This document shows, piece after piece, positions 4,324 through 8,727 of a DNA stretch of 44,739 nt (the first letter of the stretch is position 1; each line of letters opens with the position of its first letter). This DNA is from a virus (lineage: Duplodnaviria > Heunggongvirae > Uroviricota > Caudoviricetes). The stretch lies in the IMG/VR virus record IMGVR_UViG_647533158_000005; one strand, given 5' to 3'. The notes under the pieces are model-generated. The model did not search any database. It worked only from the letters and a program-made list of their open reading frames with translations, and was not told the origin of the DNA. The translations under genes and the position numbers were made by a program.

Positions 4324-4897
4324 CATTATCGCGTCCTCAACAATGAATTTTGTGATGCAGTGCCTGGTGCCTCCAGGTGACGTTAACCAGTTAACAATTA
4401 ACGCCGGAATACATAAGAGGATACTTACGCCAGTAAAAGACCTCTTTACTGATTTAACTGTTCCGCGTGCGCATAGCCGCATTCACCGCATCACAAAATT
4501 CACTTTAAAAAGGGCGGCAGAGCAGTCACGGAGTAAAACTGATACCGCCAAATGTCACCAGAAAATTGATAACAGAGGGCGTTGCAGCGGGGTTGTCACT
4601 TAAGCGTATGGTCAACCTGACAACCCGGTGTCCTCAACGGGGAAGGAATAACCCCGCCATACTTACCGCCGCGCCATTTCGCGGAGTGCCGCAACCGGAA
4701 GCGCACGGTCGACGAAAATTTAACGACAGGCTATCTATGAACCAGCTACCTCGCCGTGCGCTTTCGCGTTATGGTCTGACTTTTCAGGGAAATATCCTTT
4801 CAGTAAACTGTCAGTGCCGGATGCTCACCCGTGTCCGGCGCACGCACTCCACCTCACCCGTGGAGAACTCCTTAATCACCAACCCTCAGGAGGGTGA

Positions 4898-7199: not shown

Positions 7200-8276
7200 A
7201 TGGCTAACGCCTGGCTCAGATTATGGCATGACATGCCAAATGACCCTAAGTGGCGAACAATTGCCAGGGTGTCAGGGCAGCCAATTGCAACAGTGATGGC
7301 AGTGTATATCCACCTCCTGGTGAGCGCGTCACGAAATGTCACGCGAGGTCACATTGATGTCACGACAGAAGATTTGGCAAGTGCGCTCGACGAGACAGAA
7401 GAGGTAATTGATTCAATTTTGCAGACGATGCAGGGGCGGGTACTTGATGGTGATTTAATCACTGGATGGGAAAAACGCCAGGTGCTGAAAGAGGACAACG
7501 GCAATATTTCGCAAACCGCAAAATCCCCTGCAGAGCGCAAGAGGGCGCAGCGAGAGAGGGAAAGAAAGCGGGAACAAAATGGCGATTGTCACGATGCGTC
7601 ACGAAATGTCACGCATATGTCACGCCGAGTCACGACAGATAAAGATACAGATAAAGATAAAGATACAGATAAAGAAGATCAAAACACTATGGTCCATGGC
7701 GTAAAAAACGCCACGAACCTGGTATGGGATGTTCAGACCGTCAATCCTGGTCAGCCAGCAGGCACGATACCGGAAGCCGATTCAGCGTATGCGCTGAAAG
7801 CCGATTCGGACGCTGTGCAGCAGGTAATGACCGCAAGGCAGGAGCAATCACACCAACTGCAGCAGCCTGAAGCCGATTCCGCCATTCAGCGGGAAGCCGA
7901 TCGGGTAGTCCCGGAAAACACCGGGCAGCCTGTGGGACGAGTGGATTATCCGGATGTGTTCGAACGGGTCTGGCGGGAATACCCGTTGCGTGCTGGAGCA
8001 AACCCGAAGAAATCCGCTTTCAGTGCATGGAAGGCCAGATTACGCGAGGGGGTGTTACCAGAGGCCATGCTGGATGGTGTGAGGCGTTACGCAAGATACC
8101 TGGCGGCTACCGGGAAAACGGGAACGGAATTTGTTCAGCGAGCGACGACGTTTTTTGGACCAGACCGGAATTTCGAAAACCCCTGGTTGCTTCCGGTAAG
8201 CGGCACGAACAACCAGCGTTGTGTGAATCATATTTCTGAACCGGATACCGAAATTCCGCCTGGCTTCAGGGGGTAA
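7200..8276 (+). CDS. Putative phage replication initiation protein (O-like / YdaU-like)
   Basis: ATG at 7200 with GAGG Shine-Dalgarno; sits at the O-gene position after the CII-like gene; contains two internal arrays of GTCAC(G) repeats at 10-11 bp phasing (iteron-like). Confidence 0.5.
   Translation: MANAWLRLWHDMPNDPKWRTIARVSGQPIATVMAVYIHLLVSASRNVTRGHIDVTTEDLASALDETEEVIDSILQTMQGRVLDGDLITGWEKRQVLKEDNGNISQTAKSPAERKRAQRERERKREQNGDCHDASRNVTHMSRRVTTDKDTDKDKDTDKEDQNTMVHGVKNATNLVWDVQTVNPGQPAGTIPEADSAYALKADSDAVQQVMTARQEQSHQLQQPEADSAIQREADRVVPENTGQPVGRVDYPDVFERVWREYPLRAGANPKKSAFSAWKARLREGVLPEAMLDGVRRYARYLAATGKTGTEFVQRATTFFGPDRNFENPWLLPVSGTNNQRCVNHISEPDTEIPPGFRG
7328..7680. repeat. Iteron-like repeat arrays (candidate replication origin) inside replication gene
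   Basis: GTCAC(G) at 7328, 7338, 7348, 7359 and at 7588, 7598, 7608, 7619, 7629 (10-11 bp spacing), followed by tandem GATAAAGATACA-type repeats 7639-7680. Confidence 0.5.
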
Positions 8277-8316: not shown

Positions 8317-8727
8317 GTGGCAAAAGTTTTTACACAAGAAGAGCGAGAAAAAATTAAAGGGCAGGTTGCTGAACTCGTACGCCAGAGTGGGCGCGAGACG
8401 TTACGACAACTGGAAGCTAAAACCGGGGCAACAAGATATCTGATGAGCGTTCTGGCCAGAGAGCTGGTTACCAGTGGCGATGTATACAACTCTGGCTACG
8501 GGTTATTCCCGTCAGAACAGGCTCGTAAGGACTGGCAAAATGCCCGCAAAAAACTCTCGAGGGCAAAGGTGAAGAAACCATCTGTGGTTGATCCGGACCT
8601 TATCTGGTCATTACCTGACGGAGAAATACGTCGCTACGACAGGAGATTGAACATAATTTGTAGCGAGTGCCGGAAGAGCGAAGTTATGCAGCGTGTACTG
8701 GTGTTTTATCAGGGAAACTTTTATTGA
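8317..8727 (+). CDS. Hypothetical phage protein (136 aa)
   Basis: ORF with GTG start downstream of AGGAGG; follows replication gene; no recognisable motif. Confidence 0.4.
   Translation: MAKVFTQEEREKIKGQVAELVRQSGRETLRQLEAKTGATRYLMSVLARELVTSGDVYNSGYGLFPSEQARKDWQNARKKLSRAKVKKPSVVDPDLIWSLPDGEIRRYDRRLNIICSECRKSEVMQRVLVFYQGNFY

Follow-up and report, generated by a model that had tools for sequence, protein, structure and literature searches.

The window analysed here is the whole 44,739-nucleotide (nt) stretch of DNA of the Caudoviricetes virus record IMGVR_UViG_647533158_000005, a lambda-like prophage with DicF, hok/sok, transfer RNAs (tRNAs) and late genes. At 7200-8276 it carries the gene of a replication initiator of 358 amino acids (aa), inside which lie two arrays of short direct repeats (iterons), the second running into an A-rich tract. 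These repeats are probably the replication origin of this lambda-like temperate phage, an Escherichia coli prophage, embedded in its own initiator gene. The features of the gene are the following.

7200-8276, + strand: replication initiator gene, 358 aa, replisome-organizer type (open reading frame; PHROG 3729), with the origin candidate inside.
7200-7493, + strand: codons of the N-terminal winged-helix-like domain (N-domain, aa 1-98), the presumed iteron reader (AlphaFold2 (AF2) model).
7328-7364, + strand: iteron array 1, four direct copies of GTCAC(G), spaced 10, 10 and 11 bp.
7391-7396, - strand: degenerate inverted iteron copy, reading CGAGAC (alignment with relatives).
7527-7589, + strand: codons of a basic helix (aa 110-130, AERKRAQRERERKREQ) between N-domain and linker (AF2 helix; R113 and R118 conserved).
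7588-7634, + strand: iteron array 2, five direct copies of GTCACG, spaced 10, 10, 11 and 10 bp.
7635-7687, no strand assigned: A-rich tandem repeat with purine strand bias (GATAAAGATACA...), candidate DNA unwinding element (DUE), with GATC at its end, 7677-7680 (Tandem Repeats Finder).
7691-7719, no strand assigned: imperfect palindrome right of the A-rich tract, with the perfect core TGGCGT AAAAA ACGCCA at 7697-7713.
7947-8187, + strand: conserved core of the exchangeable C-terminal domain (C-domain; YPDVFERVW...NFENPW), presumed helicase-loading coupler, shared with other initiators.
8223-8273, + strand: C-terminal tail VNHISEPDTEIPPGFRG, near-identical to the DnaT C-terminus (phmmer).

The original prediction had counted GTCAC(G) four times at 7328-7364 and five times at 7588-7634, 10-11 bp apart, and the sequence confirms both series. 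The GTCAC copies of array 1 start at 7328, 7338, 7348 and 7359 (+ strand); the third is GTCACA and the remaining three are GTCACG. Those of array 2 start at 7588, 7598, 7608, 7619 and 7629 (+ strand), and all five are GTCACG, giving 8/9 copies of the hexamer across the two arrays. Tandem Repeats Finder reports a period of 10 at 7583-7624. Both strands of the window together hold 34 GTCACG against 21.2 +/- 4.4 in shuffled sequence, with 0/100 shuffles reaching 34, and 8 of the 34 fall within the 310 bp that span both arrays. Phased GTCAC chains (at least 3 copies, 9-12 bp spacing) were sought on both window strands, and only arrays 1 and 2 were found. About 30 nt after array 1, most relatives of the GTCAC class have an inverted iteron, CGTGAC (the reverse complement of GTCACG), whose codons give D-V-T where the putative recognition helix begins; where residue 65 is valine, its codon is GTG in 17/17 relatives. 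In the window this copy is mutated to CGAGAC, with glutamic acid. The initiator gene has no DnaA boxes (the window has 5, where 3.9 are expected, the closest being at 8328), and there is therefore no sign of DnaA dependence. Promoter-like matches were at chance level (3 against 2.2 expected).

Array 1 encodes aa 43-55 (A-SRNVTRGHIDVT), comprising the end of the helix at aa 29-45 and the loop before the helix-turn-helix (HTH). The codons of array 2 are those of aa 130-145 in a disordered linker, directly adjoined by the A-rich tract; together they encode aa 130-162, between N-domain and C-domain, a segment modelled as disordered by AF2. The translation contains SRNVT twice (aa 44-48 and 136-140, numbered from ATG 7200) and TDKDTDKDKDTDKED. 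The duplicated SRNVT and DK peptides that had been described as linkers are thus present, but the first SRNVT is not a linker, as it sits in a confidently modelled loop of the N-domain.

Homologue counts come from genome scans separate from the window. A scan of viral contigs (viral_contigs) with the single N-domain returned only loci 98-99% identical, which had no comparative power, and was replaced by a scan of one genome per species with an N-domain alignment. This gave 65 loci from Gamma-, Beta- and Alphaproteobacteria, Acidobacteria and other groups. Phased arrays were counted on 63 homologues by a de novo search for phased 5-mers (at least 3 strictly phased copies), with 733 control segments for comparison. 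Genes lacking the repeats were looked for, and the arrays proved to be kept: a phased array stands at the linker position (array 2) in 54/63 homologues versus 17/733 controls (2.3%), and at the upstream position (array 1) in 41/63 versus 4/733 (0.5%). The best 5-mer is identical in both arrays in 37/41 homologues having both. Motif classes differ by subgroup, GTCAC(G), GTAAC(G), (C/G)GAACGC and a few others, with a common (C/A)ACG(C) core; the motif switches in concert in both arrays, and the classes track the subgroups of the N-domain. That the array motif and the N-domain change in step supports an origin. Strict helical phasing between the two arrays was considered and rejected, the inter-array distance varying from 248 to 350 bp. 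In Escherichia albertii (locus L087, 2129-2181) two further repeats, inserted in frame as 21 nt (7 codons), bring array 1 to 6 iterons.

Codon usage was analysed at conserved residues only in 20 GTCAC-class genes or lineages with a median nucleotide identity of 69%. Normalised codon entropy was 0.05 where the third position falls inside a GTCACG core, compared with 0.82 at 39 other conserved residues (Mann-Whitney p=5e-6). GTCACG cores occur in all three reading frames, so that one DNA word yields VT, CH/GH or SR, and linker peptides vary from homologue to homologue while the DNA cores persist. The iteron consists of a 6-bp asymmetric core and a free spacer of 4-5 bp. By this codon evidence selection acts on the DNA of the arrays, since synonymous sites are frozen in the cores and the cores occur in all three frames. 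The frozen sites of array 1 show clearly, in a natural case, how a DNA signal can override the choice of codons in a folded protein domain.

The tandem repeats that had been claimed to follow the second array were also found. At 7637-7675 Tandem Repeats Finder gives a period of 6 (AGATAA, 6.5 copies) and one of 18 (2.2 copies, 100% match). Over 40 nt the tract has an AT fraction of 0.775 (99.4th percentile of the window) and a purine fraction of 0.80 (99.8th percentile). Its weakest 40-mer ranks first for instability in the gene and fourth in the 44.7-kb window; the tract being the least stable duplex of the gene is a further reason in favour of an origin. The 36 nt after the last iteron, taken as a composition-independent measure of the tract, have an AT fraction of 0.6-0.86 and are purine-rich in nearly all homologues, including genes with 58-69% GC. 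Aspartate codons are GAT:GAC = 149:5 in the tract versus 520:552 elsewhere, a contrast that is partly circular, as the tract was located by composition. Compared with phage Tritos and Shigella, the DK repeat of the window has one extra 6-nt unit.

The palindrome at 7691-7719 has a DNA fold z-score of -2.3. A perfect hairpin of at least 6 bp lies within 60 nt after the tract in 30/56 homologues (54%) versus 14% of controls (p=1.5e-11). The stems differ between loci and the loops recur; it is possibly a structured single-strand element, such as a priming or primosome signal. The recurring loops are TCACTACGTTC, or TGAC, TAAC or TATC between CC...GG (loci L088, L102, L005, L135, L145, L104, L140, L147, L124 and L127). 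On the minus strand (7719-7691) the palindrome scores as an intrinsic-terminator-like structure with a T run, which may be a by-product of the palindrome and its A-rich flank.

The 358-aa protein matches PHROG 3729, 'replication initiation protein', with E=3.4e-250 (residues 1-358 on 1-356 of 356), and the NCBI name for close relatives is 'phage replisome organizer'. ATG 7200 is the most likely gene start, rather than GTG 7194, because homologues begin MANxW. In the AF2 model, aa 11-90 have a predicted local distance difference test score of 88-98 and comprise helix 29-45, a strand near 51, helices 56-63 and 67-77 and a beta hairpin at 78-88; aa 131-200 are disordered, and the helical C-domain is poorly modelled. 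Foldseek against PDB gave weak winged-HTH matches for the N-domain (best E=0.42) and a PDB sequence-profile search with it gave none, which leaves the fold assigned in generic terms only. The N-terminal 125 aa align end to end with Phage_rep_org_N and TIGR01714, below the cut-offs of both, and the initiator appears to be a distant or borderline relative of PF09681/TIGR01714. Near-identical genes (96-97%) occur in the isolated Escherichia coli phages Tritos, Evi and others. The gene was matched in 2495/5426 complete E. coli genomes, and in 1647 of these the match spans 80% or more of the gene.

The last 17 residues (VNHISEPDTEIPPGFRG) match the C-terminus of DnaT (VNTVSEPDSQIPPGFRG) in a phmmer search against PDB chains 6aep, 2ru8 and 9zbt. 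The DnaT equivalog NF002770 scores 18-20 bits against a cut-off of 201, with the last 24 residues aligning on positions 156-179 of 179, and the rest of the initiator was unrelated to DnaT in sequence searches. Membership of the DnaT family was rejected, as the tail alone aligns, far below the NF002770 cut-off. The tail may be mimicry of the host replication-restart protein and suggests a reliance on host proteins. A role for the DnaT C-terminal tail was not found in a preprimosome paper. The initiators of POCJ13 and mEp460 end alike (...IPPGFRG and ...IPAGFRG).

The initiator is preceded by a divergent cI-like repressor, a cro-like (YdaS) and a cII-like (YdaT) gene and followed by a DUF977/Ren-like gene. 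In homologues the gene directly downstream is lambda-P-like, IstB/DnaC-like, DnaB, weakly G39P-like or a primase-helicase, and the order of initiator and then loader or helicase is that of lambda O-P and SPP1 38-39-40. Pseudomonas phage phita81A has an N-domain of 69% identity with an unrelated C-domain and a primase-helicase gene downstream; both GTCAC arrays and the beginning of the A-rich tract are present there as well, and similarity stops right after the tract. The similarity of POCJ13 begins at about 7677, also right after the tract, and the C-domain is found again, joined to unrelated N-domains, in POCJ13, SfV, mEp460, HTH_36/DnaD_N proteins and others. As judged from these alignments, N-domain, arrays and tract move as one module, because phita81A keeps all three with another C-domain and POCJ13 shares only the part after the tract. 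The replication gene of mEp460 (locus L004, 2298-2444), with an unrelated HTH_36/DnaD_N N-domain and the same C-domain, has mid-gene repeats of its own, GTGCAGGAGATTCAC-type in three copies and AGAACCAGTCA in three copies, which suggests the same logic of an origin within the gene. Two circular 50.9-kb Pseudomonas aeruginosa records filed as plasmids (CP137943.1 and CP124671.1; locus L151) carry the N-domain module and a DnaB-like gene; both are lambdoid phage genomes with S24 repressor, cII, NinB and NinG. Their initiator gene is missing from the PLSDB gene table.

A further ground for an origin is that the position within the gene matches that of the lambda iterons and the SPP1 oriL repeats. 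The lambda iterons occupy nt 349-433 of O as annotated, and array 2 occupies nt 389-435 of its gene; both are direct repeats in mid-gene, after an N-terminal DNA-binding domain. As in the window, lambda ori runs from direct repeats into an AT-rich tract, with a palindrome beyond it. The O gene, too, lies after cro and cII under the early rightward promoter, and its N-domain and ori form one specificity module with an exchangeable C-domain. Other lambdoid phages such as P22 (gene 18) also have the origin within the initiator gene. Lambda has four annotated 18-bp iterons, 20-24 bp apart and with internal dyad symmetry, whereas here 6-bp cores recur every 10-11 bp; the iteron of the window, with its asymmetric 6-bp core, is not of the 18-19 bp kind with dyad symmetry. 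Lambda has one array and the gene described here two, 260 bp apart, and the loader gene P lies next door in lambda, unlike in the window, where the initiator has no neighbouring loader gene. A lambda O homologue was rejected, as the Phage_rep_O profile (PF04492) did not match the N-domain at E<=1 and gave 5.7e-36 for lambda O in the same search. The lambda-O-like arrangement that had been proposed stands for layout and position, but not for the protein.

In lactococcal P335-type phages (TP901-1 ORF13, Tuc2009 Rep2009) direct repeats required for replication lie within the organizer gene, with repeat sequences and hosts different from those of the window. The iteron origins of P1, R6K, pSC101 and RK2 consist of direct repeats bound by a winged-helix initiator beside an AT-rich DUE, and extra iteron blocks of plasmids serve copy control; plasmid iterons are 17-22 bp long, with a spacing of about two turns, and lie outside the rep coding region, whereas those described here are 6-bp, one-turn and inside it. 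In layout and periodicity, array 2 and the DK tract are matched by SPP1 oriL, which lies inside gene 38, has repeats bound by G38P ('AB boxes') and an adjacent AT-rich DUE, and drives replication in vitro (PMC5737612). In SPP1 gene 38 (locus L154, 533-648; gene nt 355-410) 11-bp phased repeats were found (GAAACGACA twice, GAAAAAGACAC twice, and GAAACGG), followed by an AT-rich stretch encoded as an Asn/Asp-rich linker. These repeats share an AACG core with the AACGC iteron class of the initiator family, and an N-domain relative (P0111) carries the C-domain family of G38P, Phg_2220_C. No clear upstream array was seen in gene 38. SPP1 differs in having its own loader and helicase (G39P and G40P), of which the window has none beside the initiator, in having a second site, oriR, elsewhere in its genome, and in its Gram-positive host. 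On this comparison the candidate would be of a known kind, an iteron origin inside an initiator gene, and widespread, and the second array in codons of the DNA-binding domain appears unusual.

In the proposed mechanism the N-domain (aa 1-98), perhaps with the basic helix at aa 110-130, would bind the 6-bp GTCACG cores, which lie one helical turn apart, and the bound proteins would all sit on the same side of the helix. The A-rich tract at 7635-7687 would be opened by cooperative binding to array 2, with help from supercoiling and from transcription starting at the early promoter upstream, and the exchangeable C-domain would then bring in the replicative helicase. The helicase would come from host proteins, which are probably used because no loader or helicase gene stands beside the initiator. 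Array 1, 260 bp upstream in codons of the DNA-binding domain, would be a second array for the same protein, possibly an auxiliary or looping site, or a site of dosage control.

The in-silico tests applied all favour the candidate origin inside the replication gene that had been put forward: identity of the initiator, conserved arrays, selection at the DNA level, co-change of the motif, the unstable tract and position. Several observations weigh against it. Only array 2 adjoins an AT-rich tract, array 1 being without one, and six distant homologues have the linker array only; the core design can therefore do without array 1. Since most residues that tell the iteron classes apart have their codons in array 1 itself, independent covariation of reader and site could not be shown; outside the iteron-encoded residues the candidates are weak (aa 28-31, 42 and 100-105) and confounded by phylogeny. 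The family scores are low, with 17.6 bits against a cut-off of 23.3 for PF09681 (Phage_rep_org_N; E=0.004, aligned over 1-119 of 121) and 20.8 bits against 49.8 for TIGR01714. The hhalign match of the N-domain to SPP1 G38P is weak (probability 0.3, E=0.2), with a sensible register; G38P itself had no PF09681 match in the same scan. The window has a DUF977/Ren-like gene directly after the initiator and no helicase loader or helicase gene there. Literature searches (iterons with replisome organizer, GTCACG, DnaT-like phage replication, and E. coli prophage organizers) found no binding, melting or origin activity described for the initiator family. Two 'Eru' papers on the replication regions of Shiga toxin (Stx) phages do not treat origins, and the papers on the non-lambda replication modules of Stx phages state that nothing is known of how these replicate (PMC8951638).

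That the arrays are binding sites acting in regulation (roadblock or autorepression, titration, handcuffing), with the true origin elsewhere, is unlikely. DNA-level conservation demonstrates a function and does not say which, and array 1, inside the codons of the DNA-binding domain, is without the adjoining AT-rich tract. Iterons of plasmid initiators also double as autoregulatory and handcuffing sites. Array 2, however, is joined directly to an AT- and purine-rich tract, often with a hairpin, which is the signature of an unwinding origin; the window has no other GTCAC cluster, and layout and position are those of two validated origins (lambda ori and SPP1 oriL, PMC5737612). Array 1 could plausibly serve regulation; for array 2, accompanied by tract and hairpin, this is not plausible.

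It is very unlikely that the repeats are a recombination boundary where phages swap replication modules, with no role in initiation. The similarity breakpoints of phita81A and POCJ13 do fall right at the end of the A-rich tract, and the tract sequence AGATAAAGATA is common to very distant members. This would leave unexplained the 10-11 bp phasing, the concerted switching of both arrays and the frozen synonymous sites of array 1, which lies in a domain that is no boundary, and module exchange at ori is equally expected of an origin. Lambdoid O genes exchange modules at ori.

Less likely still is a centromere-like partition site or a packaging site. Two blocks of short direct repeats phased by one turn resemble centromeres of the parC type, such as the phased 11-bp repeat arrays of plasmid R1 parC, and the two circular P. 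aeruginosa records with the module are filed as plasmids. Both records are lambdoid phage genomes, however, and partner genes for a centromere or packaging role are missing; no partition genes are adjacent, the five neighbourhood genes being the cI-, cro(YdaS)- and cII(YdaT)-like genes, the initiator and DUF977, and the arrays are always inside the initiator gene, followed in homologues by helicase or loader genes.

A purely protein-level cause, by which DNA periodicity would be a by-product of duplicated peptides and a low-complexity linker, is the least probable, and the codon analysis already contradicts it: there are two SRNVT copies and the DK/DT repeat, modelled as disordered, is plausible as a flexible acidic-basic linker, but cores in three frames give VT, CH/GH and SR peptides from the same DNA, linker peptides vary while the DNA cores stay, synonymous sites are frozen inside the cores only, and the 149:5 preference for GAT in the tract stands against about 1:1 elsewhere, GC-rich hosts included.

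If the repeats are the origin, as is preferred here, a further reading is that it is self-referential: in the GTCAC class, array 1 and an inverted copy downstream encode parts of their own reader, the loop ahead of the HTH (aa 45-55) and the first residues of its putative recognition helix (aa 64-66). This is doubtful. Nearly all amino-acid differences between iteron classes fall in the iteron-encoded segments. Were the variable 5' part of the iteron to be contacted by these segments, the same mutations would alter both the site and its reader, and such an origin would have a built-in route to new, mutually orthogonal origin specificities.

Relatives of the N-domain occur in prophages of many Proteobacteria and some Acidobacteria, and rep_origin features could be annotated in thousands of genomes. 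The origin candidate would give a handle on prophage induction and copy number, bearing on toxin dose in related phages, and the GTCAC, GTAAC and AACGC classes could be used for orthogonal phage-derived replicons.

A third set of repeats was seen in the initiator gene at 7770-7901, with AAGCCGAT(T/C) at 7774, 7797, 7870 and 7893, forming two pairs with a 23-bp spacing. The peptides encoded there, PEADS.../KADS.../PEADS.../READR, belong to an acidic stretch, and three copies of the repeat are also present in POCJ13 (locus L003, 2600-2713). Very many database copies of the initiator protein are 'partial' and come from short contigs (clusters P0012, P0121, P0131 and others); in clusters with 1121 and 911 members, for example, no contig is longer than 683 bp and 21 kb, respectively, which suggests that short-read assemblies often break in or near the initiator gene.

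Elsewhere in the window, Rfam matches above the gathering score are DicF small RNA (sRNA) at 4512-4563 (- strand), the sok antitoxin RNA at 11127-11302 (+ strand) and STnc100 sRNA at 17112-17301 (+ strand). The tail-gene region is interrupted by two long runs of N (from 37947 and from 40202; masked or unassembled). Two adjacent tRNA genes lie at 16329-16484, one for tRNA-Met (CAT) and one that is read by ARAGORN as having a four-base anticodon, 'tttt' (Rfam tRNA 45 bits).

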